Notes: generated from the sequence alone by a model not told the origin. 57,512 nucleotides of DNA from an uncultured Methanosarcinales archaeon (GCA_964517565.1 CAZFEG010000001.1:1-57512), one strand, 5' to 3'; shown: positions 1-57,512, counted from the first letter of the stretch. A program made the numbers and translations.

Positions 1-514
1 TTTCATCAACTGCTCCAAATTTTTTATCAATTAAATCATTATAATCTGAAATACTTGAATTATCACTTCTCTTAAATATAACACTACCAAATGATGTGGT
101 TTTTGTTCCATTATAGAGATACTGCATTGTTGCAATTTGGCTAACATTGTGTCTTACTTCTAAATCAACATATATGGCTGGATTCACAAGAACGAAATCA
201 ACTTCCCCATTTTCAACCATCTCATTTACTTCTTCAAAATCCATCGGTACTATAACAAAAGTATAATCCAACAAATTATTATTAAGATATGTCTCTGTGT
301 CACTCCATCTACTCAATACTTCTGTTGTACCTTGATTCGCAAGAATACCAATTTTGACAACTGTTGGGTCGCTTTCTTCAATCCCGTAATCATGGTAGTA
401 CTCGGAAACTACTTCTTCTTCTCTAATAGTAATAAGGAATACCATTCCTGCTACAAAAATACTGAAAAATAAACTATATACAATCAGTTCTTTAAAAGTC
501 AGTTTTTTCTTCAT
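1..514 (-). CDS. Membrane-anchored sensor protein with an N-terminal PhnD/phosphonate-binding-like solute-binding domain; C-terminal part cut off by the window edge
   Basis: ATG at 512..514 (minus strand) sits behind a GGAGG RBS, and the ORF runs off the window. It has one N-terminal TM helix (LIVYSLFFSIFVAGMVFLI). This is followed by a periplasmic-binding-protein-like segment (VKIGILANQGTTEVLSRW...GEVDFVLVNPAIYV) typical of the sensory domains of kinases and cyclases. It lies next to two response-regulator genes. Confidence 0.7.
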   Translation of the reverse strand, partial: MKKKLTFKELIVYSLFFSIFVAGMVFLITIREEEVVSEYYHDYGIEESDPTVVKIGILANQGTTEVLSRWSDTETYLNNNLLDYTFVIVPMDFEEVNEMVENGEVDFVLVNPAIYVDLEVRHNVSQIATMQYLYNGTKTTSFGSVIFKRSDNSSISDYNDLIDKKFGAVDE

Positions 515-588
515 AGTATACCTCCATAATTAGTCTTCTTATTCTATTATAACATGTAAAAAGAATATGATAAAAAAATAAAAACAAT

Positions 589-625
589 AAAATAAAAGGT
601 TGCTATCAAAATTTGATAACAACCT
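589..625 (-). terminator. Intrinsic terminator after the OmpR-type regulator gene
   Basis: On the gene strand: aggttgttatcaa-att-ttgatagcaacct followed by ttttatttt. This is a 12-13 bp stem with one G-U pair. Confidence 0.75.
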
Positions 626-630
626 CTATA

Positions 631-1349
631 TTATTCGATTCCATTTTGACTTAGAAGCATATCAACTACTTCTTTTCCCAATCGATACCCAAATGCATAA
701 ACAGTTTCTATGACTTCTGGATTTTTTGGATCTACTTCGATTTTATTTCTTAATCTTTTTACATGTACATTTATCGTATTATCCACTGATTCCTCATATT
801 GTTCTCCCCAAACAACTAAGTACAATTGTTTCTAGAGAAGGCTCTCTCAGGATTATCCAGTAGCATCTTTATAATATCAAATTCCTTATTTGTAAGTTCG
901 AGTTCTATATTGTCTCTTTTTACTTTTCTAGATAGAAAATCTATATCTAAATGTTTAAATTTAAATGTTTTACTGCGTTCGTTTTCTTTTTCCCTATCTT
1001 CTAATATAATCTTAATACTTTCAACAATCTCATCTGGTTTTAGTGACTTCTCAATAAAATCACTTGCTCCAACCCCAATAAGTTTTACTCTAGATTTTAC
1101 ATCTGCATGAACAGTATTTATTATCACAGGTACATCAGATTTTTTACGTAGAATTTGTAAAAAAGCATATCCGTTCATTTTTGGTAAATCTAGATCCAAA
1201 ATTATTGCGGAATAATCATGTTTATTAATTTCTAGCAACCCATCCTCGGCGTTAAAACAACAGTCTACAATGTAGTCATTATTTTGAAGTTTACGCTCAA
1301 TTGTTTTACTAACGATTTTATTGTCTTCTACTAGTAAAATTCTTTTCAT
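631..1349 (-). pseudogene. OmpR/PhoB-family response regulator interrupted by a single-base frameshift
   Basis: ORF 816..1385 gives the REC domain and the start of the winged helix (...LTNKEFDIIKMLLDNPERAFSR). ORF 631..825 gives the rest in another frame (LYLVVWGEQYEESVDNTINVHVKRLRNKIE...YAFGYRL). The junction is at the 3-nt homopolymer 829..831. The likely start is MKRILLVEDN (ATG 1347..1349) behind an AAAGGGG RBS. Confidence 0.85.
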
Positions 1350-1520
1350 AATGTAGCCCCTTTGAATACTATATTTTACACACAAGACTATTATATCAAA
1401 TACATCCGCTTTCTACAAGATTGTTAATGAACATTGTCATTAATTTTGATTATATATACAAAATTGTTTTTTATGTCATAAAAAAGAACCAAATTTTTAT
1501 TTGGCTCTTTTGTTGTTTGT

Positions 1521-2285
1521 CTATAATTGATCCATATATTTATGCAATTCTTCTCGTAGCAGGTCATAATTATTAAGTAGTGGCTCTTCTAGAAGTAATA
1601 CATCACTTATTTTGTTTTCTGCGGATAGGTCTAAAATTTGTTGAGTAAGTTTTAGTATTTTTGGAGCATTCAAATAGATAAATGAACCTTTCATATAATG
1701 AAGCGCTTTATATATTAATGCACAATCTTTCGCAAAGAATGCATCGTTTATGTTTTTAAGGTCTTTTTGTTTTTCAGCATAAAATGTATTTATAATTTCT
1801 TTACGTAGAAAATCATCTTCATAAAATAATTCAAATCCGTTTTTATTAAATATTTCCAACTCTTTATCAATCTCTTTTGTATCATTAATGCTACTGCCAA
1901 AATACTCATTCAATAGTTTTTCTAGATTTTCTTTACGAATAGGTTTAGGTAAAACACCATTCATTCCACACTCAGCTATTTTGTTTTGTGTTTCTTCAAC
2001 ATCATTAGCTGTAACTGCAATAATTGGAACGTCTCCATTCGGACCATCTAGTTCTCGAATGTGTCTGCTTGTTTCATATCCATCCATACCCGGCATAAAA
2101 ATATCCATAAAAATCATATCAAAAATTTCTTTTTTTACTAATTCAATTGCTTCAACCCCGTCTTTGGCTTCAGTAACATCTAAATACATTCTCTTAAGTA
2201 ATTCTCCCATTACTCTTCGGTTAATATTATTGTCATCAACGAGTAGTATTTTCTGTTTACTCAGTGATTTATATTTCTCATCCAT
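1521..2285 (-). CDS. Stand-alone receiver (REC) - histidine phosphotransfer (Hpt) fusion protein
   Basis: N-terminal receiver motifs are present (KILLVDDNNINRRV, DMIFMDIFMPGMDG, PIIAVTAN, LPKP). The C-terminal helical region carries the Hpt HxxKGS motif (ALHYMKGSFIYL). An AGGAGG RBS lies upstream. Confidence 0.85.
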   Translation of the reverse strand: MDEKYKSLSKQKILLVDDNNINRRVMGELLKRMYLDVTEAKDGVEAIELVKKEIFDMIFMDIFMPGMDGYETSRHIRELDGPNGDVPIIAVTANDVEETQNKIAECGMNGVLPKPIRKENLEKLLNEYFGSSINDTKEIDKELEIFNKNGFELFYEDDFLRKEIINTFYAEKQKDLKNINDAFFAKDCALIYKALHYMKGSFIYLNAPKILKLTQQILDLSAENKISDVLLLEEPLLNNYDLLREELHKYMDQL

Positions 2286-2680
2286 ATAAATCCTCCTATC
2301 AGTTCCTAGGCGCTATTTACCCCTTATTATTATGCTTCTTAATACTGATTATTCGCTAGTCCATCCTCAATATACAATGTTTACTATTTTAGTCTAATCA
2401 ATATTATTATTTTAATCAACACTTAGGATGTTTTGTTAATATTTATTTAAGATTTAATTAAGATTTGTGATTGCGATTGTTATTTCACGAAGTAAAACCG
2501 CTCAATTTACTACTTCAATTTTTAATGGAAGTATTTCTTTTACTTAGATAGCAATCTCGAAAATCGGGTAATTTCTCTACCATTTTCTCTTGCACTAATC
2601 ACCAATATCTTTGAAGTGGGAGTTATCCTAAACTTATTAGATAAAGTAAACATAAAGATTATCAAATATGGATTTATAAC

Positions 2681-2710
2681 AAAAAACAAAACCTCTCGGT
2701 TTTGTTTTTT
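2681..2710 (-). terminator. Intrinsic (bidirectional) terminator after the 663-aa lipoprotein gene
   Basis: aaaaaacaaaacc-tctc-ggttttgtttttt forms a 13-bp stem flanked by A and T runs, 5 nt after the stop codon. Confidence 0.9.
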
Positions 2711-2715
2711 AACAT

Positions 2716-4707
2716 TTATTCTGATTTATTAATTTCAAACTCTGTAATTTTAACAATGTAACTTGCTCCGGTAGCTGTAACTGTATAATCCGCAAAGACT
2801 TTTATAGTATATTCTGAATCTGGGTTTAAATCATCAATAAATAGTACTGTCCCATCATTCGTAAATCTAATAAGTCCGATGTAATTCGTTCCAGACCATA
2901 GTTCTGCAGAATATATGATGTTAGATTCAAATCCTTCTTCATTCCATTCCGCACTACAAGTTGTTTGAGTTCCTGTAGATGAACAATCTATACTAGTAAG
3001 TATTGGTCTTGGTGCAGCTAGCGTATTAAAATCTAATAGCTCAAGTTCTACATATACTGTATCACTTTCACCTGTTGGAATGTAAGAATACTCAACAACA
3101 AGCTTATAATTTGTGTCTTGAGTTAACCAATCAAACATTATTTCATTATTGCCAACTAATAATCCTGATATATTTGCTTGGTGACCATCAATATCATAAA
3201 CATAAGCTGTCATTGAAACGATTTCTGATTGCGCATCCTCGACATCTATGACCACATTAATATATTCTTTGCCTATTTCATAACTAGTTAATCCAAAATA
3301 ATTATCTTGTACACTAGAGTCTACAACATTAATAGTTCTAGTAACATTAAAAGGTACTCCATCTATAGTCGCACTATAAGTAATTGTATAGGTTCCTACT
3401 ATATTAGGATACAATGACTGCGTAATAACTGCATTAGGATATCCAATTACACTTGCTCCTGGATCAACAAATGGAGTGTTTATTTCTACTTCTACAATAC
3501 TATCTCCATTTAGAACCATATAAGGAGCAAAAACAATATCTGATACTGGCAACGTACTAAATTCTTCCGTATAATCTCCTATAGAAACAAAATTACCATC
3601 ACTCAAATAAAATCCATCTAATATAAAATGATATGTTGTTTCAGCTAATAATCCTTCAAATGTTATTGTAGTTGTTCCGTGAGAATAAACGAACCCAGAA
3701 ACTCTCTCACTTCCAAGATAAAGTGATGCAAGTGGGTTTGTAATTCTCTCTGTTGCATCATCAACAGTAACCGAAATAGTAAGACTATAAGCTTCTGCAT
3801 CAACCAATTCTATTACTACTCCAAAATCAACTTCACCTGGCACATCATCTGGATCATCATTTGGGTCTACATCAACTGCATCAACAATGACAGTTCTATG
3901 TGCATAAATTGAAGCTAAATTAAAGACAATTATATATCTAACAGTGTATGTTCCTGCTATTGCTGTATCTACATCTGATTCAATCGTTATTTCTAATTCC
4001 TGTTGCTCTCCAATGATAGTAACGCCTTGTTCTATATATTCGTCACCAACATTAAGATGCAATTCTTCTTCACCAACAAGTTCTAGTCTTGGATAATCCT
4101 TAGGGTCAGTTAACGTTGTTTTAGCCCCAATTGTATAGTCGTCTAGCGTGTATACTAGCTCATTATCAGTATAAGAACCAATAAATTCTAAACGATAATA
4201 TGTTTGGTTAGCCAGTTCATCAAACTCTAAATATGTCATTCCATTAGCTACAGGAAAGGATTTGATTTTTTCATCAAGATAATACAATATTCCTTCACCA
4301 TCAATTAAATCCCCATCTTGATCATCTATTTCGATTAAGAAAGTAAGTGCATTAGGATCTATAGACTCTACAGACAAGTTTATATTAAAGTCTTTTTCAG
4401 TTTCTGGTACAACTCTAATTTTTCTACCTATTCTAATTTCTTTACCATTATAATCAACACTATAGTCGATAAAATATATACCATATGTTGTAATATCTAG
4501 ATTAGAATCAGTAGTTATTTCAAGATCAAAATCTCCAACTAGTTCTACCCCTGGATCAACGTATTCTTCGTTTAATCCAATAGTCACATCTATCTCACCA
4601 TTAAGCTCTAAAGCAGGTAAATAATCTTTTAAGATTTCTGGTAACTGATCACAACCTGATAAAAATAAAACCAATATTGCCACAATTCCAATAATTACTT
4701 TTTTCAT
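2716..4707 (-). CDS. Modular surface lipoprotein (663 aa) with repeated Ig-like (DUF5011-type) and beta-sandwich units
   Basis: The signal peptide has lipobox LSGC. Three Ig-like modules are present (EEYVDPGVEL..., GDEYIEQGVTI...GTYTVRY, TPFVDPGASV...GTYTITY). They alternate with units ending in NQTYYRLEFIGSY, ETTYHFILDGFY, DTNYKLVVEYSY and DSEYTIKVFADY. A GGAGGG RBS lies upstream. Confidence 0.85.
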   Translation of the reverse strand: MKKVIIGIVAILVLFLSGCDQLPEILKDYLPALELNGEIDVTIGLNEEYVDPGVELVGDFDLEITTDSNLDITTYGIYFIDYSVDYNGKEIRIGRKIRVVPETEKDFNINLSVESIDPNALTFLIEIDDQDGDLIDGEGILYYLDEKIKSFPVANGMTYLEFDELANQTYYRLEFIGSYTDNELVYTLDDYTIGAKTTLTDPKDYPRLELVGEEELHLNVGDEYIEQGVTIIGEQQELEITIESDVDTAIAGTYTVRYIIVFNLASIYAHRTVIVDAVDVDPNDDPDDVPGEVDFGVVIELVDAEAYSLTISVTVDDATERITNPLASLYLGSERVSGFVYSHGTTTITFEGLLAETTYHFILDGFYLSDGNFVSIGDYTEEFSTLPVSDIVFAPYMVLNGDSIVEVEINTPFVDPGASVIGYPNAVITQSLYPNIVGTYTITYSATIDGVPFNVTRTINVVDSSVQDNYFGLTSYEIGKEYINVVIDVEDAQSEIVSMTAYVYDIDGHQANISGLLVGNNEIMFDWLTQDTNYKLVVEYSYIPTGESDTVYVELELLDFNTLAAPRPILTSIDCSSTGTQTTCSAEWNEEGFESNIIYSAELWSGTNYIGLIRFTNDGTVLFIDDLNPDSEYTIKVFADYTVTATGASYIVKITEFEINKSE

Positions 4708-4882
4708 TAAAAAACCCTCCTATTTTCCATTTTGGAAGGTTTCACTCTCTTGAAAGGATTTTGTTCAAGCAATTGATTATATCCCCTAGTAACCTTCCAT
4801 ACACTAACTTAATTTTATCATAATATTTTACTTGTCGCAATATTATTCTAACGATTAGGTTTTAGTTCCGCTTTTCAATAAA

Positions 4883-4913
4883 GAAAAACACCACCTGTAT
4901 CAACAGATGATGT
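4883..4913 (-). terminator. Intrinsic terminator after the ABC exporter operon
   Basis: On the gene strand: acatcatctgt-tgat-acaggtggtgt followed by ttttt. This is an 11-bp stem including two G-U pairs. Confidence 0.8.
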
Positions 4914-4946
4914 CTCTTCAATCACTTTTCAAACTATGTAAGTTTA

Positions 4947-6785
4947 CTATTCTAATGTTTTATTAAACTGTGCATTGTATAGGTTAAAGTAGAACCCTTC
5001 TTTTGCTAGTAACTCACTGTGTGAACCGGTTTCAATAATGTCTCCGTCATTCATAACTAAAATATGATTCGCATTTTTTATCGTTGATAAACGATGAGCA
5101 ATGACAAAGTTAGTACGGCCCTTCATTAGTTTAAGCATTGCGTTTTGAATGTAACTTTCAGTTCTTGTGTCAACGCTTGATGTTGCTTCATCTAAAATTA
5201 GGATACGTGGATTAGCAAGCAACGCACGAGCAATCGTAATTAATTGTTTTTGACCTTGTGAAATATTATTTGCTTCCTCGTTTATAATTGTTTGATATCC
5301 ATCTTTTAGCGTTCTAATAAAGTGGTCTACATTTGCAATTGATGCTGCATTATATACGTCTTCATCAGATGCTTCTAATTTACCATAACGGATATTATCC
5401 ATAATTGTTCCTTTAAATAACCAAGTATCTTGTAGTACCATTCCGAATGCTTGACGAACATCACTTCTTGATGCATCGTAAATAGATTTACCATCAATTC
5501 TAATGTCTCCTGATTGAGCATCATAAAAACGAAGTAATAGATTTACTAGTGTCGTTTTACCAGCACCCGTTGGACCAACAATCGCAATTGTTTCTCCTTC
5601 TTTAACATCAACACTGAAATCTGTGATCAAGTTTTGTCCTTCTTTATATGAAAAAGCGATATGATCGATAGTAACATGTCCAACTACATCATTAAATATA
5701 TTTGAGTCTTCTTGTCTGCTTTCTTCTTCTTCATCAAGTAATTCAAATACACGTTCTGCGGCAGCTACTGTTGATTGGATTAGGTTTGAAACACTTGCAA
5801 CGTTACTAATTGGTTGTGAGAATAGTCTAATATATTGTATAAATGATTGAATATTCCCGATTTCAATTGCTCCATTGATAAATAATATTGCTCCAACAAC
5901 ACTTATTAATACATAGATAATGTTGTTTACAAGGTTTATGATTGGCATAATAATACCACTCATAAATGCTGCACGCCATGCTGCATGTTTTAGTTCTTTA
6001 TTAATACCTGTAAAAGTTTCTATTGAACCTTCTTCTTTTCCAAAAGCTTTTATGATTTGGTGTCCCGAATACATTTCTTCGATATGTCCATTTAAATCTC
6101 CAAGCGTTTTTTGTTGTGCCTTGAAGTATTTTTGGCTTCGTTTTACAATTGGTTTTATTAAGAAGAATGATAATGGCAACGTGATAAGTGCAACCAAAGT
6201 CATTGTTACAGAAATTGTAAGCATCATGTAAAGTACACCAATAATCATTACAATCGCAGTAACCAAGTTATTCAATCCTTGTTGCATTGTAGAACCAACT
6301 GTATCTACATCATTTGTCACACGACTTAGTAATTCACCATGAGTTTTACTATCATAGTATTTTAATGGTAATTTTCTAAGTTTTTCTTTGATATCTTTAC
6401 GCATTCTAAATACTGTGTTTTGTGTTACTCCAACCATAACAAAGTTTTGGATATAAGCAAATAATGCACTTAGCACATATAAGACAGAAAGATATGTAAG
6501 TAAATCATTTATAGGAGCAAAATCTACTCCTTGTGGAGAGAAAAATCCTTTGTATATTTCTGTAGTAATATCCCCAAGTACACGTGGTGATATTATTGTA
6601 AATACCATTGAAGCAATCGAGAAGATAACAACAATAATTATTTTTGGTAAATCTGGTCTTAAGTAATTGATTAAGCGTTTTAATGTCCCTTTAAAGTTCT
6701 TTGCTTTTTGAACAGACATCGCCATTCCCATAGGTCCACCATGAGGTCTAGAACCACGGTTTTGTTGTTTTTTATCGTTACTCAT
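4947..6785 (-). CDS. ABC exporter permease/ATPase fusion, consensus-site partner of a heterodimeric multidrug-type exporter
   Basis: A six-TM domain is followed by an NBD with Walker A GPTGAGKTT, Walker B ILILDEATSSVD and an atypical signature ISQGQKQ. The start is taken at MSNDKK, whose ATG overlaps the upstream stop (ATGAGTAA), rather than the longer ORF-track start. Confidence 0.9.
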   Translation of the reverse strand: MSNDKKQQNRGSRPHGGPMGMAMSVQKAKNFKGTLKRLINYLRPDLPKIIIVVIFSIASMVFTIISPRVLGDITTEIYKGFFSPQGVDFAPINDLLTYLSVLYVLSALFAYIQNFVMVGVTQNTVFRMRKDIKEKLRKLPLKYYDSKTHGELLSRVTNDVDTVGSTMQQGLNNLVTAIVMIIGVLYMMLTISVTMTLVALITLPLSFFLIKPIVKRSQKYFKAQQKTLGDLNGHIEEMYSGHQIIKAFGKEEGSIETFTGINKELKHAAWRAAFMSGIIMPIINLVNNIIYVLISVVGAILFINGAIEIGNIQSFIQYIRLFSQPISNVASVSNLIQSTVAAAERVFELLDEEEESRQEDSNIFNDVVGHVTIDHIAFSYKEGQNLITDFSVDVKEGETIAIVGPTGAGKTTLVNLLLRFYDAQSGDIRIDGKSIYDASRSDVRQAFGMVLQDTWLFKGTIMDNIRYGKLEASDEDVYNAASIANVDHFIRTLKDGYQTIINEEANNISQGQKQLITIARALLANPRILILDEATSSVDTRTESYIQNAMLKLMKGRTNFVIAHRLSTIKNANHILVMNDGDIIETGSHSELLAKEGFYFNLYNAQFNKTLE

Positions 6786-8514: not shown

Positions 8515-8957
8515 TTTTCTTCTCCTAACTCTTGAAAGTATTTAATAATATCATCGAGAATTGAAATAAAGTCCTTACTTTTTTCTTCTCCAAGATAATT
8601 CGATAATTCGATGAACCTTTCTGTAATAATTCGAAAAGATTCCTCTAAAACTTTTTTTCCTGTTTTTGAAATTTCAATTAACGTTACCCTTCCATCTAGT
8701 GGATCATTCACACGAGAAATATATTCTTTTTTCTCAAGTGCATTAACTGTTTGAGAGATTGTTGGATGGCTTACATTCAACATCGTCTTTAATGTCTTTA
8801 CATTAATGCTTACACCTTTTTTATGTTTCATCATTGAAGTAATGCGCATAATTCTTGTCTCCAATTCTGTTAAAGAAGGTAGAGTATATGAATGCTTTTT
8901 TAGTTTTGTCAACTCATGAAGTTGATTCCAAATAATAATTCCATTATGTTCTTTCAT
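8511..8957 (-). CDS. MarR-family transcriptional regulator (first gene of the ABC exporter operon)
   Basis: A winged-HTH segment is present: VSHPTISQTVNALEKKEYISRVNDPLDGRVTLIEISKTGKKVL. A GAGGTGA RBS lies upstream. Confidence 0.85.
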   Translation of the reverse strand: MKEHNGIIIWNQLHELTKLKKHSYTLPSLTELETRIMRITSMMKHKKGVSINVKTLKTMLNVSHPTISQTVNALEKKEYISRVNDPLDGRVTLIEISKTGKKVLEESFRIITERFIELSNYLGEEKSKDFISILDDIIKYFQELGEEK

Positions 8958-9142
8958 ATGTCACCTCATTTTCTATTTAGGTAAGTTCGTTACATATTTT
9001 ATAATATTCTCATTATAAATGCAACTATAATGAATTAAATCTTTTTATATTCCATTTGCTCCAATAAAAAAGACATATCCAAAATCGCAATATATCTCAT
9101 TAATTCCACTTCTGTTAATGTCTTTTTTAATTATTAAGAAAT

Positions 9143-9889: not shown

Positions 9890-9931
9890 AAACTCACCCT
9901 TTTCCATTATTTTTATAAATCTACATTTTCA

Positions 9932-9960
9932 ATTATACAATAACCAACAAAAACTATCAA
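9932..9960 (-). promoter_or_regulatory. SigA-type promoter of lipB (TTGATA-17-TATAAT)
   Basis: On the gene strand TTGATA, a 17-nt spacer and TATAAT lie about 45 nt upstream of the lipB start. Confidence 0.6.
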
Positions 9961-12241: not shown

Positions 12242-12260
12242 ATGTGATTTCTCCTTAGAT

Positions 12261-45252: not shown

Positions 45253-45271
45253 ATCTAAGGAGAAATCACAT

Positions 45272-47552: not shown

Positions 47553-47581
47553 TTGATAGTTTTTGTTGGTTATTGTATAAT
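47553..47581 (+). promoter_or_regulatory. lipB promoter TTGATA-17-TATAAT (twin of 9932..9960)
   Basis: TTGATA is at 47553..47558 and TATAAT at 47576..47581. Confidence 0.6.
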
Positions 47582-47623
47582 TGAAAATGTAGATTTATAA
47601 AAATAATGGAAAAGGGTGAGTTT

Positions 47624-48370: not shown

Positions 48371-48555
48371 ATTTCTTAATAATTAAAAAAGACATTAACA
48401 GAAGTGGAATTAATGAGATATATTGCGATTTTGGATATGTCTTTTTTATTGGAGCAAATGGAATATAAAAAGATTTAATTCATTATAGTTGCATTTATAA
48501 TGAGAATATTATAAAATATGTAACGAACTTACCTAAATAGAAAATGAGGTGACAT

Positions 48556-49002
48556 ATGAAAGAACATAATGGAATTATTATTTGGAATCAACTTCATGAG
48601 TTGACAAAACTAAAAAAGCATTCATATACTCTACCTTCTTTAACAGAATTGGAGACAAGAATTATGCGCATTACTTCAATGATGAAACATAAAAAAGGTG
48701 TAAGCATTAATGTAAAGACATTAAAGACGATGTTGAATGTAAGCCATCCAACAATCTCTCAAACAGTTAATGCACTTGAGAAAAAAGAATATATTTCTCG
48801 TGTGAATGATCCACTAGATGGAAGGGTAACGTTAATTGAAATTTCAAAAACAGGAAAAAAAGTTTTAGAGGAATCTTTTCGAATTATTACAGAAAGGTTC
48901 ATCGAATTATCGAATTATCTTGGAGAAGAAAAAAGTAAGGACTTTATTTCAATTCTCGATGATATTATTAAATACTTTCAAGAGTTAGGAGAAGAAAAAT
49001 GA
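48556..49002 (+). CDS. MarR-family regulator (twin of 8511..8957)
   Basis: Exact reverse-complement twin with an identical protein. Confidence 0.85.
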   Translation: MKEHNGIIIWNQLHELTKLKKHSYTLPSLTELETRIMRITSMMKHKKGVSINVKTLKTMLNVSHPTISQTVNALEKKEYISRVNDPLDGRVTLIEISKTGKKVLEESFRIITERFIELSNYLGEEKSKDFISILDDIIKYFQELGEEK

Positions 49003-50735
49003 AAAAGGCTTATAAATTATTAACTACAAGAGAACGATTTACCGTTCTCTTGATTATTTTACTTGTATCAGCACAAGTATATTCTCAATTAGAATTACCA
49101 TCATACACTGCTGATATTATTGATATTGGTATCTTCAATAAAGACTTGCCATATATTTATGGAAAAGGTGGACTGATGCTGTTAATCTCATTAGCAAGCA
49201 TCGTTGCAAGTATTTTTGCATCATTCTTTGCTGCAAAAATAGCTGTAAGTGTGGGTACTAAATTACGTTTTTGGGTATTTCAAAAAGTTTCAAACTTTTC
49301 ATCTCAAGAATATAATAAATTTGGTGCATCTACACTTATTACAAGAAACACAAATGATATTATTCAAGTTCAAAATTTTACGTATACGATGTTACGTCTA
49401 ATGGTAATGGCACCGCTAATGCTAATTGGTGGAATTCTTAAGGCTCGTATGCAAAGTACTGAGTTATCTTTTATCTTTTGGTATTCGATACCAGTATTAG
49501 TGTTTACAATAATAGTTGTCGCTTTTGTAGCGCTACCTCTATTTAAAAAACTTCAAGAGCGCTTAGATGCAGTTAACCTTGTATTTCGTGAAAACTTGAT
49601 TGGAGTTCGCGTGGTTCGTGCTTTCAATAGATTTAAACGTGAAAAAGAGCGTTTCAGTGAAGCAAATCTAAATCATATTACTATTGCTAAACGCGTGAAT
49701 CGAATTATGACATCTATTATGCCAGTAATGATGATTATTATGAACTTTACATCACTTGCTATTGTGTATTTTGGAGCAATCAAAGTGGATGAGGGAACTT
49801 TGCAAATAGGATCTATATTTGCTTTCTTGCAATACGCAATGCAAATTATGTTTAGTTTAGTAATGGCGTCAATGATCTTTGTTATGTTTCCTCGTGCTCA
49901 AGCATCTTATAGAAGAATTTTCCAAGTCCTTAATGAGGAACAAACTATTCAAGATAAAGAAGATGCTATAGAACAAACAGAAACAACTGGAGCTATCACA
50001 TTTAAAAATGTTATGTTTAAATATCCTGGTGCAGAAATGCCTGTATTAAGTGAAGTATCATTTACTGCAAAACCAGGTAATATTACTGCAATTGTTGGAG
50101 GAACAGGATCTGGGAAATCAACATTGATAAACCTAATCCCAAGATTCTATGATTTAACATCTGGAGAAATCTTGCTTGATGATGTAAATATCAAGGATAT
50201 TACGCAAAGAAGCTTGCGTTCTCATATTGGATATATCCCTCAATCAGCGACACTGTTTAGCGGGTCTATTCGTGATAACTTGAATCTAGGAAAAGAAGAT
50301 GCCACAGATGATGAAATCATGGATGCGATAAAAATCGCGCAAGCAGAAGAATTTGTTTCTGAAAAAGATGGTGGGTTAGACAGAGTAGTTTCTCAATCAG
50401 GTACAAACCTTTCTGGTGGACAAAAACAACGTTTATCAATTGCAAGAGCTATTGTTAAACGCCCGAAAATATATATTTTTGATGATTCATTTTCAGCATT
50501 AGATTTCACAACTGATTTTGAACTTCGAAAAGCACTTCACCCTCATATCAAAGAATCAACTATTTTTATCGTTGCTCAAAGAATTTCAACAATTAGTAAT
50601 GCTGATCAAATTATTGTTCTTGATGAAGGTAAGATAGTTGGAATAGGAACACACAAATCCTTATTACAATCATGTGACGTATACAAAGAAATTGTATCCA
50701 GTCAAATTACAGAGGAGGAGATGGATCATGAGTAA
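48999..50735 (+). CDS. ABC exporter half, degenerate-site partner (twin of 6778..8514)
   Basis: Exact reverse-complement twin with an identical protein. Confidence 0.9.
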   Translation: MKKAYKLLTTRERFTVLLIILLVSAQVYSQLELPSYTADIIDIGIFNKDLPYIYGKGGLMLLISLASIVASIFASFFAAKIAVSVGTKLRFWVFQKVSNFSSQEYNKFGASTLITRNTNDIIQVQNFTYTMLRLMVMAPLMLIGGILKARMQSTELSFIFWYSIPVLVFTIIVVAFVALPLFKKLQERLDAVNLVFRENLIGVRVVRAFNRFKREKERFSEANLNHITIAKRVNRIMTSIMPVMMIIMNFTSLAIVYFGAIKVDEGTLQIGSIFAFLQYAMQIMFSLVMASMIFVMFPRAQASYRRIFQVLNEEQTIQDKEDAIEQTETTGAITFKNVMFKYPGAEMPVLSEVSFTAKPGNITAIVGGTGSGKSTLINLIPRFYDLTSGEILLDDVNIKDITQRSLRSHIGYIPQSATLFSGSIRDNLNLGKEDATDDEIMDAIKIAQAEEFVSEKDGGLDRVVSQSGTNLSGGQKQRLSIARAIVKRPKIYIFDDSFSALDFTTDFELRKALHPHIKESTIFIVAQRISTISNADQIIVLDEGKIVGIGTHKSLLQSCDVYKEIVSSQITEEEMDHE

Positions 50736-52566
50736 CGATAAAAAACAACAAAACCGTGGTTCTAGACCTCATGGTGGACCTATGGGAATGGCGATGTCTG
50801 TTCAAAAAGCAAAGAACTTTAAAGGGACATTAAAACGCTTAATCAATTACTTAAGACCAGATTTACCAAAAATAATTATTGTTGTTATCTTCTCGATTGC
50901 TTCAATGGTATTTACAATAATATCACCACGTGTACTTGGGGATATTACTACAGAAATATACAAAGGATTTTTCTCTCCACAAGGAGTAGATTTTGCTCCT
51001 ATAAATGATTTACTTACATATCTTTCTGTCTTATATGTGCTAAGTGCATTATTTGCTTATATCCAAAACTTTGTTATGGTTGGAGTAACACAAAACACAG
51101 TATTTAGAATGCGTAAAGATATCAAAGAAAAACTTAGAAAATTACCATTAAAATACTATGATAGTAAAACTCATGGTGAATTACTAAGTCGTGTGACAAA
51201 TGATGTAGATACAGTTGGTTCTACAATGCAACAAGGATTGAATAACTTGGTTACTGCGATTGTAATGATTATTGGTGTACTTTACATGATGCTTACAATT
51301 TCTGTAACAATGACTTTGGTTGCACTTATCACGTTGCCATTATCATTCTTCTTAATAAAACCAATTGTAAAACGAAGCCAAAAATACTTCAAGGCACAAC
51401 AAAAAACGCTTGGAGATTTAAATGGACATATCGAAGAAATGTATTCGGGACACCAAATCATAAAAGCTTTTGGAAAAGAAGAAGGTTCAATAGAAACTTT
51501 TACAGGTATTAATAAAGAACTAAAACATGCAGCATGGCGTGCAGCATTTATGAGTGGTATTATTATGCCAATCATAAACCTTGTAAACAACATTATCTAT
51601 GTATTAATAAGTGTTGTTGGAGCAATATTATTTATCAATGGAGCAATTGAAATCGGGAATATTCAATCATTTATACAATATATTAGACTATTCTCACAAC
51701 CAATTAGTAACGTTGCAAGTGTTTCAAACCTAATCCAATCAACAGTAGCTGCCGCAGAACGTGTATTTGAATTACTTGATGAAGAAGAAGAAAGCAGACA
51801 AGAAGACTCAAATATATTTAATGATGTAGTTGGACATGTTACTATCGATCATATCGCTTTTTCATATAAAGAAGGACAAAACTTGATCACAGATTTCAGT
51901 GTTGATGTTAAAGAAGGAGAAACAATTGCGATTGTTGGTCCAACGGGTGCTGGTAAAACGACACTAGTAAATCTATTACTTCGTTTTTATGATGCTCAAT
52001 CAGGAGACATTAGAATTGATGGTAAATCTATTTACGATGCATCAAGAAGTGATGTTCGTCAAGCATTCGGAATGGTACTACAAGATACTTGGTTATTTAA
52101 AGGAACAATTATGGATAATATCCGTTATGGTAAATTAGAAGCATCTGATGAAGACGTATATAATGCAGCATCAATTGCAAATGTAGACCACTTTATTAGA
52201 ACGCTAAAAGATGGATATCAAACAATTATAAACGAGGAAGCAAATAATATTTCACAAGGTCAAAAACAATTAATTACGATTGCTCGTGCGTTGCTTGCTA
52301 ATCCACGTATCCTAATTTTAGATGAAGCAACATCAAGCGTTGACACAAGAACTGAAAGTTACATTCAAAACGCAATGCTTAAACTAATGAAGGGCCGTAC
52401 TAACTTTGTCATTGCTCATCGTTTATCAACGATAAAAAATGCGAATCATATTTTAGTTATGAATGACGGAGACATTATTGAAACCGGTTCACACAGTGAG
52501 TTACTAGCAAAAGAAGGGTTCTACTTTAACCTATACAATGCACAGTTTAATAAAACATTAGAATAG
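50728..52566 (+). CDS. ABC exporter half, consensus-site partner (twin of 4947..6785)
   Basis: Exact reverse-complement twin with an identical protein. Confidence 0.9.
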   Translation: MSNDKKQQNRGSRPHGGPMGMAMSVQKAKNFKGTLKRLINYLRPDLPKIIIVVIFSIASMVFTIISPRVLGDITTEIYKGFFSPQGVDFAPINDLLTYLSVLYVLSALFAYIQNFVMVGVTQNTVFRMRKDIKEKLRKLPLKYYDSKTHGELLSRVTNDVDTVGSTMQQGLNNLVTAIVMIIGVLYMMLTISVTMTLVALITLPLSFFLIKPIVKRSQKYFKAQQKTLGDLNGHIEEMYSGHQIIKAFGKEEGSIETFTGINKELKHAAWRAAFMSGIIMPIINLVNNIIYVLISVVGAILFINGAIEIGNIQSFIQYIRLFSQPISNVASVSNLIQSTVAAAERVFELLDEEEESRQEDSNIFNDVVGHVTIDHIAFSYKEGQNLITDFSVDVKEGETIAIVGPTGAGKTTLVNLLLRFYDAQSGDIRIDGKSIYDASRSDVRQAFGMVLQDTWLFKGTIMDNIRYGKLEASDEDVYNAASIANVDHFIRTLKDGYQTIINEEANNISQGQKQLITIARALLANPRILILDEATSSVDTRTESYIQNAMLKLMKGRTNFVIAHRLSTIKNANHILVMNDGDIIETGSHSELLAKEGFYFNLYNAQFNKTLE

Positions 52567-52599
52567 TAAACTTACATAGTTTGAAAAGTGATTGAAGAG

Positions 52600-52630
52600 A
52601 CATCATCTGTTGATACAGGTGGTGTTTTTC
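52600..52630 (+). terminator. Intrinsic terminator after the ABC operon (twin of 4883..4913)
   Basis: acatcatctgt-tgat-acaggtggtgt followed by ttttt. Confidence 0.8.
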
Positions 52631-52805
52631 TTTATTGAAAAGCGGAACTAAAACCTAATCGTTAGAATAATATTGCGACAAGTAAAATATTATGATAAAA
52701 TTAAGTTAGTGTATGGAAGGTTACTAGGGGATATAATCAATTGCTTGAACAAAATCCTTTCAAGAGAGTGAAACCTTCCAAAATGGAAAATAGGAGGGTT
52801 TTTTA

Positions 52806-54797
52806 ATGAAAAAAGTAATTATTGGAATTGTGGCAATATTGGTTTTATTTTTATCAGGTTGTGATCAGTTACCAGAAATCTTAAAAGATTATTTACCTGC
52901 TTTAGAGCTTAATGGTGAGATAGATGTGACTATTGGATTAAACGAAGAATACGTTGATCCAGGGGTAGAACTAGTTGGAGATTTTGATCTTGAAATAACT
53001 ACTGATTCTAATCTAGATATTACAACATATGGTATATATTTTATCGACTATAGTGTTGATTATAATGGTAAAGAAATTAGAATAGGTAGAAAAATTAGAG
53101 TTGTACCAGAAACTGAAAAAGACTTTAATATAAACTTGTCTGTAGAGTCTATAGATCCTAATGCACTTACTTTCTTAATCGAAATAGATGATCAAGATGG
53201 GGATTTAATTGATGGTGAAGGAATATTGTATTATCTTGATGAAAAAATCAAATCCTTTCCTGTAGCTAATGGAATGACATATTTAGAGTTTGATGAACTG
53301 GCTAACCAAACATATTATCGTTTAGAATTTATTGGTTCTTATACTGATAATGAGCTAGTATACACGCTAGACGACTATACAATTGGGGCTAAAACAACGT
53401 TAACTGACCCTAAGGATTATCCAAGACTAGAACTTGTTGGTGAAGAAGAATTGCATCTTAATGTTGGTGACGAATATATAGAACAAGGCGTTACTATCAT
53501 TGGAGAGCAACAGGAATTAGAAATAACGATTGAATCAGATGTAGATACAGCAATAGCAGGAACATACACTGTTAGATATATAATTGTCTTTAATTTAGCT
53601 TCAATTTATGCACATAGAACTGTCATTGTTGATGCAGTTGATGTAGACCCAAATGATGATCCAGATGATGTGCCAGGTGAAGTTGATTTTGGAGTAGTAA
53701 TAGAATTGGTTGATGCAGAAGCTTATAGTCTTACTATTTCGGTTACTGTTGATGATGCAACAGAGAGAATTACAAACCCACTTGCATCACTTTATCTTGG
53801 AAGTGAGAGAGTTTCTGGGTTCGTTTATTCTCACGGAACAACTACAATAACATTTGAAGGATTATTAGCTGAAACAACATATCATTTTATATTAGATGGA
53901 TTTTATTTGAGTGATGGTAATTTTGTTTCTATAGGAGATTATACGGAAGAATTTAGTACGTTGCCAGTATCAGATATTGTTTTTGCTCCTTATATGGTTC
54001 TAAATGGAGATAGTATTGTAGAAGTAGAAATAAACACTCCATTTGTTGATCCAGGAGCAAGTGTAATTGGATATCCTAATGCAGTTATTACGCAGTCATT
54101 GTATCCTAATATAGTAGGAACCTATACAATTACTTATAGTGCGACTATAGATGGAGTACCTTTTAATGTTACTAGAACTATTAATGTTGTAGACTCTAGT
54201 GTACAAGATAATTATTTTGGATTAACTAGTTATGAAATAGGCAAAGAATATATTAATGTGGTCATAGATGTCGAGGATGCGCAATCAGAAATCGTTTCAA
54301 TGACAGCTTATGTTTATGATATTGATGGTCACCAAGCAAATATATCAGGATTATTAGTTGGCAATAATGAAATAATGTTTGATTGGTTAACTCAAGACAC
54401 AAATTATAAGCTTGTTGTTGAGTATTCTTACATTCCAACAGGTGAAAGTGATACAGTATATGTAGAACTTGAGCTATTAGATTTTAATACGCTAGCTGCA
54501 CCAAGACCAATACTTACTAGTATAGATTGTTCATCTACAGGAACTCAAACAACTTGTAGTGCGGAATGGAATGAAGAAGGATTTGAATCTAACATCATAT
54601 ATTCTGCAGAACTATGGTCTGGAACGAATTACATCGGACTTATTAGATTTACGAATGATGGGACAGTACTATTTATTGATGATTTAAACCCAGATTCAGA
54701 ATATACTATAAAAGTCTTTGCGGATTATACAGTTACAGCTACCGGAGCAAGTTACATTGTTAAAATTACAGAGTTTGAAATTAATAAATCAGAATAA
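52806..54797 (+). CDS. Modular 663-aa surface lipoprotein (twin of 2716..4707)
   Basis: Exact reverse-complement twin with an identical protein. Confidence 0.85.
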   Translation: MKKVIIGIVAILVLFLSGCDQLPEILKDYLPALELNGEIDVTIGLNEEYVDPGVELVGDFDLEITTDSNLDITTYGIYFIDYSVDYNGKEIRIGRKIRVVPETEKDFNINLSVESIDPNALTFLIEIDDQDGDLIDGEGILYYLDEKIKSFPVANGMTYLEFDELANQTYYRLEFIGSYTDNELVYTLDDYTIGAKTTLTDPKDYPRLELVGEEELHLNVGDEYIEQGVTIIGEQQELEITIESDVDTAIAGTYTVRYIIVFNLASIYAHRTVIVDAVDVDPNDDPDDVPGEVDFGVVIELVDAEAYSLTISVTVDDATERITNPLASLYLGSERVSGFVYSHGTTTITFEGLLAETTYHFILDGFYLSDGNFVSIGDYTEEFSTLPVSDIVFAPYMVLNGDSIVEVEINTPFVDPGASVIGYPNAVITQSLYPNIVGTYTITYSATIDGVPFNVTRTINVVDSSVQDNYFGLTSYEIGKEYINVVIDVEDAQSEIVSMTAYVYDIDGHQANISGLLVGNNEIMFDWLTQDTNYKLVVEYSYIPTGESDTVYVELELLDFNTLAAPRPILTSIDCSSTGTQTTCSAEWNEEGFESNIIYSAELWSGTNYIGLIRFTNDGTVLFIDDLNPDSEYTIKVFADYTVTATGASYIVKITEFEINKSE

Positions 54798-54802
54798 ATG
54801 TT

Positions 54803-54832
54803 AAAAAACAAAACCGAGAGGTTTTGTTTTTT
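54803..54832 (+). terminator. Intrinsic terminator (twin of 2681..2710)
   Basis: aaaaaacaaaacc-gaga-ggttttgtttttt. Confidence 0.9.
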
Positions 54833-55227
54833 GTTATAAATCCATATTTGATAATCTTTATGTTTACTTTATCTAATAAGTTTAGGATAACTCCCACTTC
54901 AAAGATATTGGTGATTAGTGCAAGAGAAAATGGTAGAGAAATTACCCGATTTTCGAGATTGCTATCTAAGTAAAAGAAATACTTCCATTAAAAATTGAAG
55001 TAGTAAATTGAGCGGTTTTACTTCGTGAAATAACAATCGCAATCACAAATCTTAATTAAATCTTAAATAAATATTAACAAAACATCCTAAGTGTTGATTA
55101 AAATAATAATATTGATTAGACTAAAATAGTAAACATTGTATATTGAGGATGGACTAGCGAATAATCAGTATTAAGAAGCATAATAATAAGGGGTAAATAG
55201 CGCCTAGGAACTGATAGGAGGATTTAT

Positions 55228-55992
55228 ATGGATGAGAAATATAAATCACTGAGTAAACAGAAAATACTACTCGTTGATGACAATAATATTAACCGAAGAG
55301 TAATGGGAGAATTACTTAAGAGAATGTATTTAGATGTTACTGAAGCCAAAGACGGGGTTGAAGCAATTGAATTAGTAAAAAAAGAAATTTTTGATATGAT
55401 TTTTATGGATATTTTTATGCCGGGTATGGATGGATATGAAACAAGCAGACACATTCGAGAACTAGATGGTCCGAATGGAGACGTTCCAATTATTGCAGTT
55501 ACAGCTAATGATGTTGAAGAAACACAAAACAAAATAGCTGAGTGTGGAATGAATGGTGTTTTACCTAAACCTATTCGTAAAGAAAATCTAGAAAAACTAT
55601 TGAATGAGTATTTTGGCAGTAGCATTAATGATACAAAAGAGATTGATAAAGAGTTGGAAATATTTAATAAAAACGGATTTGAATTATTTTATGAAGATGA
55701 TTTTCTACGTAAAGAAATTATAAATACATTTTATGCTGAAAAACAAAAAGACCTTAAAAACATAAACGATGCATTCTTTGCGAAAGATTGTGCATTAATA
55801 TATAAAGCGCTTCATTATATGAAAGGTTCATTTATCTATTTGAATGCTCCAAAAATACTAAAACTTACTCAACAAATTTTAGACCTATCCGCAGAAAACA
55901 AAATAAGTGATGTATTACTTCTAGAAGAGCCACTACTTAATAATTATGACCTGCTACGAGAAGAATTGCATAAATATATGGATCAATTATAG
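55228..55992 (+). CDS. REC-Hpt fusion protein (twin of 1521..2285)
   Basis: Exact reverse-complement twin with an identical protein. Confidence 0.85.
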   Translation: MDEKYKSLSKQKILLVDDNNINRRVMGELLKRMYLDVTEAKDGVEAIELVKKEIFDMIFMDIFMPGMDGYETSRHIRELDGPNGDVPIIAVTANDVEETQNKIAECGMNGVLPKPIRKENLEKLLNEYFGSSINDTKEIDKELEIFNKNGFELFYEDDFLRKEIINTFYAEKQKDLKNINDAFFAKDCALIYKALHYMKGSFIYLNAPKILKLTQQILDLSAENKISDVLLLEEPLLNNYDLLREELHKYMDQL

Positions 55993-56163
55993 ACAAACAA
56001 CAAAAGAGCCAAATAAAAATTTGGTTCTTTTTTATGACATAAAAAACAATTTTGTATATATAATCAAAATTAATGACAATGTTCATTAACAATCTTGTAG
56101 AAAGCGGATGTATTTGATATAATAGTCTTGTGTGTAAAATATAGTATTCAAAGGGGCTACATT

Positions 56164-56882
56164 ATGAAAAGAATTTTACTAGTAGAAGACAATAAAATCG
56201 TTAGTAAAACAATTGAGCGTAAACTTCAAAATAATGACTACATTGTAGACTGTTGTTTTAACGCCGAGGATGGGTTGCTAGAAATTAATAAACATGATTA
56301 TTCCGCAATAATTTTGGATCTAGATTTACCAAAAATGAACGGATATGCTTTTTTACAAATTCTACGTAAAAAATCTGATGTACCTGTGATAATAAATACT
56401 GTTCATGCAGATGTAAAATCTAGAGTAAAACTTATTGGGGTTGGAGCAAGTGATTTTATTGAGAAGTCACTAAAACCAGATGAGATTGTTGAAAGTATTA
56501 AGATTATATTAGAAGATAGGGAAAAAGAAAACGAACGCAGTAAAACATTTAAATTTAAACATTTAGATATAGATTTTCTATCTAGAAAAGTAAAAAGAGA
56601 CAATATAGAACTCGAACTTACAAATAAGGAATTTGATATTATAAAGATGCTACTGGATAATCCTGAGAGAGCCTTCTCTAGAAACAATTGTACTTAGTTG
56701 TTTGGGGAGAACAATATGAGGAATCAGTGGATAATACGATAAATGTACATGTAAAAAGATTAAGAAATAAAATCGAAGTAGATCCAAAAAATCCAGAAGT
56801 CATAGAAACTGTTTATGCATTTGGGTATCGATTGGGAAAAGAAGTAGTTGATATGCTTCTAAGTCAAAATGGAATCGAATAA
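56164..56882 (+). pseudogene. Frameshifted OmpR/PhoB-family response regulator (twin of 631..1349)
   Basis: Exact reverse-complement twin. The frame break is at the A3 run 56682..56684. Confidence 0.85.
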
Positions 56883-56887
56883 TATAG

Positions 56888-56924
56888 AGGTTGTTATCAA
56901 ATTTTGATAGCAACCTTTTATTTT
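56888..56924 (+). terminator. Intrinsic terminator (twin of 589..625)
   Basis: aggttgttatcaa-att-ttgatagcaacct followed by a T-rich tract. Confidence 0.75.
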
Positions 56925-56998
56925 ATTGTTTTTATTTTTTTATCATATTCTTTTTACATGTTATAATAGAATAAGAAGACTAATTATGGAGGTATACT

Positions 56999-57512
56999 AT
57001 GAAGAAAAAACTGACTTTTAAAGAACTGATTGTATATAGTTTATTTTTCAGTATTTTTGTAGCAGGAATGGTATTCCTTATTACTATTAGAGAAGAAGAA
57101 GTAGTTTCCGAGTACTACCATGATTACGGGATTGAAGAAAGCGACCCAACAGTTGTCAAAATTGGTATTCTTGCGAATCAAGGTACAACAGAAGTATTGA
57201 GTAGATGGAGTGACACAGAGACATATCTTAATAATAATTTGTTGGATTATACTTTTGTTATAGTACCGATGGATTTTGAAGAAGTAAATGAGATGGTTGA
57301 AAATGGGGAAGTTGATTTCGTTCTTGTGAATCCAGCCATATATGTTGATTTAGAAGTAAGACACAATGTTAGCCAAATTGCAACAATGCAGTATCTCTAT
57401 AATGGAACAAAAACCACATCATTTGGTAGTGTTATATTTAAGAGAAGTGATAATTCAAGTATTTCAGATTATAATGATTTAATTGATAAAAAATTTGGAG
57501 CAGTTGATGAAA
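56999..57512 (+). CDS. Membrane sensor protein with a PhnD-like binding domain, 3' truncated (twin of 1..514)
   Basis: Exact reverse-complement twin. The ATG at 56999 sits behind a GGAGG RBS, and the ORF runs off the window end. Confidence 0.7.
   Translation, partial: MKKKLTFKELIVYSLFFSIFVAGMVFLITIREEEVVSEYYHDYGIEESDPTVVKIGILANQGTTEVLSRWSDTETYLNNNLLDYTFVIVPMDFEEVNEMVENGEVDFVLVNPAIYVDLEVRHNVSQIATMQYLYNGTKTTSFGSVIFKRSDNSSISDYNDLIDKKFGAVDE

Follow-up and report, generated by a model that had tools for sequence, protein, structure and literature searches.

A 57.5-kb mirror-image contig from an uncultured Izemoplasmatales bacterium turns at a hairpin in an IS91-family end and is most probably an artifact

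The stretch of DNA analyzed here, 57,512 nt in length and called the window below, is a perfect palindrome, and as a biological feature this palindrome is not real. We regard it, with a probability of roughly 0.8, as an assembly or library artifact formed at a hairpin in the end of an insertion sequence (IS), not as the native arrangement; the data would have been short reads, and the join would have been made either in silico or through snap-back of library molecules. The earlier note on this DNA, made from the sequence by itself, had likewise preferred a fold-back artifact, and that preference is strengthened by independent contigs in which the arm occurs once and is followed by native DNA both beyond the axis and beyond the outer ends.

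Comparison of the window with its own reverse complement gave 0 mismatches and 0 indels, a symmetry far beyond chance. The axis lies exactly at the midpoint, between positions 28,756 and 28,757, with no spacer and no N; base counts are A = T = 19,666 and C = G = 9,090, and the two arms, although rich in homopolymers and of only 31.6% GC, show no difference over 28,756 nt. Exact self-complementarity means that every open reading frame (ORF) is mirrored. The description given previously, of a spacer-less palindrome of 2 × 28,756 bp with its axis at the window midpoint, identical proteins at mirror positions, 28.7 kb of unique DNA, and doubled gene counts, is thus correct throughout. The features discussed below are collected in Table 1.

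Table 1. Features of the window, in order of their first position; mirror copies are listed where they bear on the argument
Feature	Position	Strand	Description	Basis or remark
Left arm	1..28756		Unique 28.7 kb, by sequence Ca. Izemoplasmatales chromosome; reversed relative to the fetched loci	ORFs, Pfam, 99.8-100% identity to contigs and a MAG
Hybrid histidine kinase, first 171 of 1,024 aa	1..514	-	Mirror at 56999-57512 (+)	Phosphonate-bd domain; cut by the window end
Class I SAM-dependent methyltransferase	27920..28630	-	Mirror at 28883-29593 (+)	Last gene before the axis; Methyltransf_11, 3e-22
Mirror copy of the 37-nt IS end	28720..28756	-	Artifactual	Sits where the IS interior (transposase gene) belongs
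Perfect palindrome, GGGCAAATT left and AATTTGCCC right of the axis	28748..28765		18 nt, 7-bp stem, TTAA loop	Center coincides with the symmetry axis
Right arm	28757..57512		Exact reverse complement of 1-28756; artifactual second copy	0 mismatches
IS91-family end, last 37 nt, upstream of the transposase gene	28757..28793	+	AATTTGCCCGAAAGGTGAATCTATTCACTATTTTTTA	Boundary in the T-run ambiguous by a few bases
Second small hairpin in the IS end	28771-28784		GTGAATCTATTCAC	
Point at which IS-bearing and IS-free forms converge	28787		Insertion-site boundary in the T-run of the fabZ terminator	Alignments of both forms

By its sequence, the arm is ordinary internal chromosome of an uncultured Ca. Izemoplasmatales bacterium (Mycoplasmatota); it is 99.8 to 100% identical to contigs and a metagenome-assembled genome (MAG) of that group. 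Reading inward from position 1, the left arm encodes the partial hybrid histidine kinase, two response regulators, a surface Ig-like protein, and ABC exporters, followed by MarR, a lipoate ligase, an MFS protein, TetR, an Opp-type ABC importer, and an SDH_alpha-family protein, and then, toward the axis, by RidA, a B12-riboswitch operon, a dUTPase, a NUDIX protein, and finally the methyltransferase. Pfam scans of 25 arm proteins identified no telomere resolvase or protelomerase and no partition, replication, phage, or plasmid gene. Differences from Illumina-derived contigs are confined to one strain-specific cluster near the riboswitch; over 8.3 kb the arm is 100% identical to such contigs, and homopolymer indels, sought in this comparison as a sign of long-read data, were absent from the arm. 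A frameshift in a response regulator gene near position 816 was considered as a possible sequencing error, but was rejected as such because all of the independent contigs share it.

The methyltransferase gene served as the anchor for finding independent contigs, and an identical protein is encoded on 17 of them. Six of these run past the position of the axis into a fabZ-fabF-fabG-fabD-fabK-fabH-acc gene cluster, and the order of fabZ followed by the methyltransferase is kept in at least six related species. The arm is present in single copy in independent strain-level assemblies (99.8 to 100% identity), and position 28,756 is followed there by the fab operon in some cases and by an IS91-family element in others. 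At the other extremity, seven contigs with 100% identity pass through the end of the window and on into the remainder of the kinase gene, rpsB, and tsf; no repeat or variant boundary is visible there in other samples, and the outer ends appear to be arbitrary points inside the histidine kinase gene. A search for single-copy contigs continuing past 28,756, which the earlier note had proposed as a check, therefore succeeded, and these continuations past the axis are of the kind that the same note had named as refuting a real palindrome or hairpin end.

Two forms of the locus were recovered. The window and contigs L007 and L009 represent the IS-bearing form, and contigs L001 to L005, L008, and L010 the IS-free ancestral form, here variant A, in which the fabZ terminator is found instead; alignments of variant A begin at arm positions 28 to 31, and that of L006 begins exactly at the insertion-site boundary. 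The empty site thus exists in the same haplotype, which makes the insertion a polymorphism upstream of the methyltransferase gene. L009 crosses the axis, reading CTTAAAAAGGGCAAATT to its left and AATTTGCCC to its right, and the 17 nt that L009 has past the axis match the IS consensus, not the mirror sequence. It departs from the window beyond 9 nt, so that the non-mirror sequence in L009 at the methyltransferase locus amounts to 8 nt only; from other copies of the IS, we infer that the remainder of the native continuation at this locus would follow the same path. L007 starts exactly at the axis. More generally, the other assemblies stop either 0 to 17 nt from the axis (L007 and L009) or about 60 to 210 nt into the IS, which shows that contig tips do end at the hairpin. 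Palindrome folding by MEGAHIT was considered for the start of L007 and set aside; it would be expected to leave an overhang of about 71 nt, and L007 has none. The fold-back junction itself was found in none of about 18 contigs of the locus and in none of 34 matches to the central 18-mer. The 18-mer had no match in viral_contigs; a 44-nt pattern beside the center had none in viral_contigs, and a 44-nt pattern of IS end plus flank had none in metagenome_contigs, collections in which neither the source contig nor the short variant-B contigs are present.

The center of the palindrome was next compared with the other copies of the element. The central 2 × 37 nt consist wholly of natural IS-end sequence, and hence adapter or other foreign sequence is absent from the center. 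The same IS end, followed by different flanks, is found in six contigs from the same lake sample series (L034, L035, L036, L038, L049, and L064), giving seven flanks with that of the window, and all six cross the hairpin natively into the start of the transposase gene. Their flanks match the arm in GC content and tetranucleotide composition; together with the difference between the flanks, this indicates that the IS is multicopy in the host. The 18-nt palindrome, which a folding computation predicts to form a stable hairpin, is subterminal in the element, 37 nt inside the IS end and 48 nt ahead of the ATG of the transposase gene; judged from these contigs, native DNA contains this part of the central palindrome and no other. 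Such perfect 18-nt palindromes occur three times in 28,964 nt, and the axis falls on one of them (p about 1e-4). The contig accordingly does not turn around at a random point; it does so where the natural 18-nt hairpin of a multicopy IS end has its center. No tRNA, tmRNA, or other structured RNA was identified at the center, and the variant-B segment was not found as a repeat within the arm.

We assign the element at the axis to the IS91 family on the strength of its predicted transposase, its subterminal palindrome, and its presence in several copies with unrelated flanks. In the copy on contig L062, the adjacent ORF matches Y2_Tnp (2.5e-26) and Zn_Tnp_IS91 (4e-20), as expected for an HUH/Y2 transposase with an N-terminal zinc-binding domain; the Izemoplasmatales copies, known from a partial gene, are highly similar to L062 over the first 53 residues of the transposase. 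The same pair of domains is found in the rolling-circle transposons IS91, IS801, IS1294, and ISCR, and a subterminal palindrome is likewise described for the IS91-family terIS, the end that precedes tnpA. The element is known from its transposase-upstream end, the opposite (oriIS) end lying on no contig recovered; in the IS91 family that end is distinct and lies beside a target of the GTTC/CTTG type, and members have neither terminal inverted repeats nor a target duplication. It differs from classical members of the family, which carry GTTC and CTCG tetranucleotides, in that inspection of its terminal 46 nt revealed neither, and its host here is a bacterium of the Izemoplasmatales (Mycoplasmatota). 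An alternative reading, in which an ORF left of the axis (ending ...GFIPSPI, followed by the stop) was the C terminus of a TnpB/IS605-type protein with an omega-RNA, was rejected: the real gene, as L062 shows, is on the opposite strand, begins 48 nt from the axis, and encodes an IS91-family transposase.

Given these observations, the explanation that we favor is as follows. A high-accuracy, most likely short-read, assembly would have yielded a 28.7-kb Izemoplasmatales contig whose inner end met the end of the multicopy IS91-family element, a place where repeat-induced ambiguity in the assembly graph would halt contigs. At the natural hairpin, 37 nt into the element, this contig would have been joined to its own reverse complement. 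We infer two possible routes for the join. The assembler may have closed or merged the dead-end tip with its conjugate through the self-complementary 18-nt overlap; alternatively, the self-conjugate link may have come from a few snap-back library molecules, which arise when end repair or amplification extends a single-stranded 3' end that has folded back at the hairpin. The k-mers usually employed (21 and above) are longer than an 18-nt palindrome, and a purely de Bruijn route would therefore need either chimeric reads or a gap-closing or merging step that tolerates short overlaps, such as the SPAdes gap closer, which may accept overlaps of about 10 nt. By either route both arms would be one graph path walked in both directions, which accounts for arms that are identical and that end at the same base.

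Contigs of this kind have been documented. Exact whole-contig palindromes arose in SPAdes-family and JGI short-read assemblies, namely, those of M. bovis isolates (PMC9455707) and of cyanobacterial single-cell genomes (bioRxiv 10.1101/2023.06.06.543983), and in both studies the authors judged them to be artifacts and removed them. The window shares with an artifact of this type the exact reverse-complement halves, the midpoint axis, and independent single-copy continuations at both ends of the arm. Whereas those reports are silent on the center of the palindromes, that of the window maps to the natural hairpin of the IS91-family end. At the level of reads, exact midpoint symmetry is a hallmark of fold-back artifacts, which can tangle assembly graphs (Breakinator, PMC12870357), and two further sources describe chimeric palindromic reads from whole-genome amplification or library preparation (Pacasus, PMC6218980) and palindromic artifacts from end repair (PMC3946424). 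Such reads turn at the midpoint, some without intervening sequence, as the window does; they are, however, single-read events with read-level error, whereas the window is a 57.5-kb consensus with identical arms.

The earlier note had listed several sources for an artifact, and it is the read-level ones, a missed adapter or a nanopore fold-back read, that fare poorly, since the perfection, the equal arms, and the lack of an adapter remnant fit a short-read graph or overlap join better. We consider it unlikely that the window is a polished long-read molecule, in which both strands of a fragment of about 28.7 kb were read as one (by nanopore, or from a SMRTbell missing one adapter). Equal arms that end at an arbitrary base, through which seven assemblies pass, would fit one sheared fragment, and breakpoints at the midpoint without intervening sequence, as in the window, are documented for about 0.6% of Oxford Nanopore (ONT) genomic DNA reads; PacBio HiFi data, however, are virtually free of fold-backs (PMC12870357). 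Neither arm-specific errors nor a central adapter remnant was found, homopolymer-type errors are likewise missing, the match to Illumina contigs is complete over 8.3 kb, and all of the related contigs recovered come from short-read assemblies; moreover, the fragment would have to end exactly at the hairpin. Very unlikely, in our estimate, is a join made in data handling, by a script or scaffolder that concatenated a contig ending at the axis with its own reverse complement. L007 is just such a contig, and its blunt fusion to its reverse complement would recreate the window, 18-nt palindrome included, but we know of no reason for such a step, and the documented cases arise inside assemblers. 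In practice this event is indistinguishable from the join that we favor, and in either case the feature is not real.

The sequence would look the same if the snap-back had occurred in vivo: in part of the cell population, DNA nicked or broken at the end of the IS91 element could have primed synthesis on itself, to give an inverted duplication or a linear fragment capped by a hairpin. Tandem-inversion-duplication junctions in Salmonella and palindromic amplification initiated by short inverted repeats are comparable events. A long palindrome centered on a natural short one is the signature of snap-back priming, the hairpin lies in the end of an HUH rolling-circle transposon, which is cleaved beside its subterminal palindrome and works through single-stranded DNA, and a second assembly, L007, begins exactly at the axis. 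We nonetheless hold this origin to be highly improbable: the junction is missing from the locus contigs and from the matches to the 18-mer, L009 and six other IS copies read through natively, and exact whole-contig symmetry is the mark of an artifact, a real event normally being embedded in flanks or asymmetric. Long perfect palindromes are, in addition, poorly tolerated and unstable in bacteria; in E. coli, SbcCD cleaves the hairpin or cruciform. The specific form in which the IS91-family HUH transposase cleaves beside the hairpin, and 3' snap-back then gives a genuine inverted duplication or hairpin-capped linear copy in a subpopulation, is more doubtful still; if true, palindromic gene amplification from short inverted repeats would have a bacterial counterpart driven by a transposon. 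The idea that the assembly read through the covalently closed hairpin telomere at the end of a linear replicon is effectively refuted by the native continuations. Read-through of protelomerase telomeres (N15 TelN, Borrelia ResT, and TelA of the Agrobacterium linear chromosome) also gives a spacer-less palindrome on a short palindromic site, and in form alone the window resembles it; but the arm encodes no resolvase and none of the partition, replication, or phage genes sought; its native neighbors are fabZ or the IS at one end and the remaining kinase gene, rpsB, and tsf at the other; it is not a replicon end, and its central palindrome is an IS91 end that is read through at six or more other sites. 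The less likely alternative offered by the earlier note, that a linear replicon had been caught at its hairpin end or as a head-to-head replication intermediate, is not borne out, the arm being internal chromosomal DNA devoid of telomere-resolvase, phage, and plasmid genes.

Taken as a record, the window calls for a quality flag: of its 57.5 kb only 28.7 kb is unique, and each gene is counted twice. An "inverted terminal repeat" of 28.7 kb would lead completeness tools that rely on terminal repeats to call a complete linear genome, and the contig could be mistaken for a hairpin-ended replicon. A simple screen may be suggested, in which a contig is first checked for identity with its reverse complement and its axis is then inspected for a short native palindrome; the window offers a worked example of a mirror contig whose turning point is a short natural hairpin at the edge of a repeat. 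What is real here is ordinary, namely, an insertion polymorphism of a multicopy IS91-family element in an uncultured Izemoplasmatales population of an Antarctic lake.

The window is identical to its own reverse complement over all 57,512 nt, without a single mismatch or indel; its base counts are balanced (A = T, C = G), the axis falls between 28756 and 28757, and there is no spacer. Every ORF is consequently mirrored, and the unique sequence amounts to one arm of 28,756 nt. An earlier note, drawn from the sequence alone, had described just such a palindrome, with about 28.7 kb of unique content, and had suggested aligning it with itself; the description holds in every detail. It had also suggested looking for contigs that carry the arm in single copy, and independent database contigs do continue into other DNA, both beyond the axis and beyond the outer ends.

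The window starts and ends 171 codons into the gene for a 1,024-aa hybrid histidine kinase. Seven independent contigs cross this outer end into the remaining kinase gene, rpsB, and tsf, with 99.97 to 100% identity over as much as 8.3 kb. It follows that the arm comes from within the chromosome and that neither outer end of the window is a natural terminus. ORFs and Pfam point to about 25 genes in a single arm, of kinds usual for a chromosome. From the outer end inward, these include the partial kinase, two response regulators, a surface Ig-like lipoprotein, and two ABC exporters; MarR regulators, a lipoate-protein ligase, an MFS transporter, TetR, and an Opp-type peptide ABC importer; an SDH_alpha-family protein, RidA, and a small operon with a cobalamin riboswitch; and, innermost, a dUTPase, a NUDIX hydrolase, and a SAM-dependent methyltransferase. 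A gene scan of the arm, with Pfam, found no tRNA, phage, plasmid, or replication genes and no telomere-resolvase domain. The methyltransferase protein places the host among the uncultured Candidatus Izemoplasmatales (Mycoplasmatota); a species-representative Izemoplasmatales MAG contig matches the arm with 100% protein and 99.8% DNA identity. Coordinates are listed in the table.

Features of the arm and of the region around the axis
Feature	Position	Strand	Remarks
Split OmpR-type response regulator	816-1385 and about 590-815	-	Mirrored in right arm
Predicted lipoprotein, 749 aa	13642-15891	+	Adjoins Opp importer
Direct repeat (300 nt) within the 749-aa lipoprotein gene	13995-14294 / 14586-14885		87% identity, 591-nt spacing
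Variable cluster	26712-26771		Substitutions and 1-nt indels
Cobalamin riboswitch	26758-26929	-	Rfam RF00174, 89.8 bits
Methyltransferase gene	27920-28630 (mirror 28883-29593)	- (mirror +)	Nearest gene to axis
IS end, 37 nt	28757-28793 (mirror 28720-28756)	+ (mirror -)
Native 18-nt palindrome	28748-28765
IS insertion site	Divergence of variants A and B at ~28787		T-run of fabZ terminator, just upstream of methyltransferase promoter region

The OmpR-type regulator is broken by a frameshift: its receiver part is called as a protein of 177 aa, and its Trans_reg_C part, 64 aa long, stands apart. All the independent contigs (L067 to L074) share this break, which rules out sequencing error as its cause and identifies a real pseudogene or frameshifted gene. 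The 749-aa lipoprotein has no Pfam match; it contains further repeated protein modules besides the 300-nt repeat and is a predicted repetitive surface protein. Downstream of the riboswitch lie genes for a 454-aa lipoprotein with a DUF4430 domain and for two small membrane proteins; this set probably serves B12 uptake. The tight variable cluster, which lies across the 3' edge of the matched riboswitch and the spacer that separates it from the lipoprotein gene, sets the window apart from every other contig; the arm is otherwise almost identical to them. Relatives of the methyltransferase occur in MAGs labelled Shewanella sp. (L021, SDWK01000281.1; 53% identity) and Bacteroidales (L022, CAYPLR010000026.1; 41%). 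L021 and a Ca. Izemoplasma MAG come from one study, so L021 may be a mis-binned contig.

Seventeen contigs, from ENA (MEGAHIT), JGI, and Logan assemblies that cover several samples, encode an identical methyltransferase; they have 99.75 to 99.94% identity to the arm, and base-level comparison revealed two native forms upstream of the gene. In variant A (L001 to L005, L008, and L010), the methyltransferase follows the operon for fatty-acid synthesis, made up of acc genes and then fabH-fabK-fabD-fabG-fabF-fabZ, and its fabZ terminator. Six or more further species in the order also have fabZ, the terminator, and the methyltransferase in this arrangement, and variant A is therefore ancestral; the exact NUDIX haplotype of the window also occurs on variant A contigs. 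In variant B (the window, L007, and L009), the sequence from ~28787 leftward reads ...GGGCAAATT|AATTTGCCCGAAAGGTGAATCTATTCACTA in place of the fabZ terminator. L009 reaches 17 nt left of the axis, where it has CTTAAAAAGGGCAAATT against CACCTTTCGGGCAAATT in the window, so that the native palindrome spans only 18 nt, GGGCAAATTAATTTGCCC.

A scan with this 18-mer gave six more contigs (L034, L035, L036, L038, L049, and L064) that belong to the same series of lake samples. They are alike for 61 to 208 nt left and 37 nt right of the axis and then enter six different flanks. All six match the arm in composition (GC 0.28 to 0.32; tetranucleotide r = 0.96 to 0.99), whereas unrelated 18-mer hits do not. 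The shared end, differing flanks, and host-like composition identify the variant B segment as the end of a multicopy mobile element. A diverged copy, L062, carries a 415-aa ORF that starts 48 nt from the axis and runs away from it, with Y2_Tnp (2.5e-26) and Zn_Tnp_IS91 (4e-20) domains; its N terminus, MNPSVSLPVSLNKVYRNEHIKNTNLKVNRESNTIKDIF..., is common to the Izemoplasmatales copies. We conclude that the element is an IS91-family rolling-circle insertion sequence. Members of this family have a subterminal palindrome beside the site of cleavage, with terIS upstream of tnpA, and transpose via single-stranded circles (PMC13181058). The IS end folds as two small hairpins (dG -10.2 kcal/mol, z = -3.3). 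As read from these sequences, the native order is tsf, rpsB, kinase ... methyltransferase, IS91 element, fabZ.

When the L049 IS end and the right arm are put together to rebuild the native sequence (28,964 nt), perfect palindromes lacking a spacer reach at most 18 nt; just three have that length, and the axis lies exactly on one of them. A random point would hit such a palindrome with a probability of ~1e-4, and the turn-around point is not random. The axis is also the repeat boundary at which other assemblies break. L007 (MEGAHIT contig, ERZ27316076 k141_43733) begins at window position 28757, exactly at the axis, which could mean that reads or graphs break repeatedly at the hairpin centre; L009 begins 17 nt past the axis. 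The JGI contig L006 begins at 28787, exactly where IS-present and IS-absent forms diverge, an expected graph branch, and JGI contigs by other IS copies end about 60 to 210 nt into the element.

The native continuations and the position of the axis at the IS hairpin make an artefact, as the earlier note had favoured, the best explanation: a contig whose tip ended in the hairpin became fused with its own reverse complement. In silico, a tip ending inside the 18-nt palindrome would overlap its own reverse complement perfectly, and a gap-closing or overlap-merging step that takes short overlaps would yield exactly the window sequence; the SPAdes gap closer probably takes overlaps of ~10 nt. Alternatively, in a few snap-back molecules a single-stranded 3' end may have folded on the hairpin and been extended in end repair or amplification, giving a self-conjugate link in the graph that would be chosen since the native path leads into an ambiguous multicopy repeat. 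By either route, both arms would be one path walked twice, hence zero arm differences and identical end points. A single long-read fold-back, polished into the contig, would account for the arbitrary outer end, but fits poorly with arms that show no differences despite AT-rich, homopolymer-rich DNA, no homopolymer errors against Illumina contigs, and no adapter remnant at the centre.

The hairpin telomere or linear-replicon intermediate that the earlier note had raised as an alternative is effectively refuted: native DNA runs on at both sides of the arm, the palindrome at the centre is an IS end, which contigs cross at six other sites, and neither a resolvase nor a replicon gene was found in the arm. 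If snap-back at the IS91 end had made a real inverted duplication in vivo, the junction sequence would be the same, yet such an event is very improbable, since the junction is absent from all other assemblies compared and perfect symmetry of the whole contig is what an artefact predicts. Exact midpoint symmetry is the fold-back artefact criterion of Heinz, Meyerson, and Li, who expect a real event to have non-symmetric support as well (PMC12870357). Exact whole-contig palindromes have been reported from SPAdes 3.14 Illumina isolate assemblies (81 contigs; PMC9455707) and from JGI/IMG-assembled Illumina single-cell genomes (bioRxiv 10.1101/2023.06.06.543983), and both author groups regard them as assembly artefacts.

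We conclude that the palindrome is not real as a genome feature and is an assembly artefact of a kind already known. The IS91-family element, seen by one end from copies on the window, L009, L034, L035, L036, L038, L049, L062, and L064, occupies this site in the window, L007, and L009, whereas L001 to L005, L008, and L010, of the same haplotype, lack it there; it is a new but ordinary member of its family, insertion-polymorphic in an uncultured Izemoplasmatales population.
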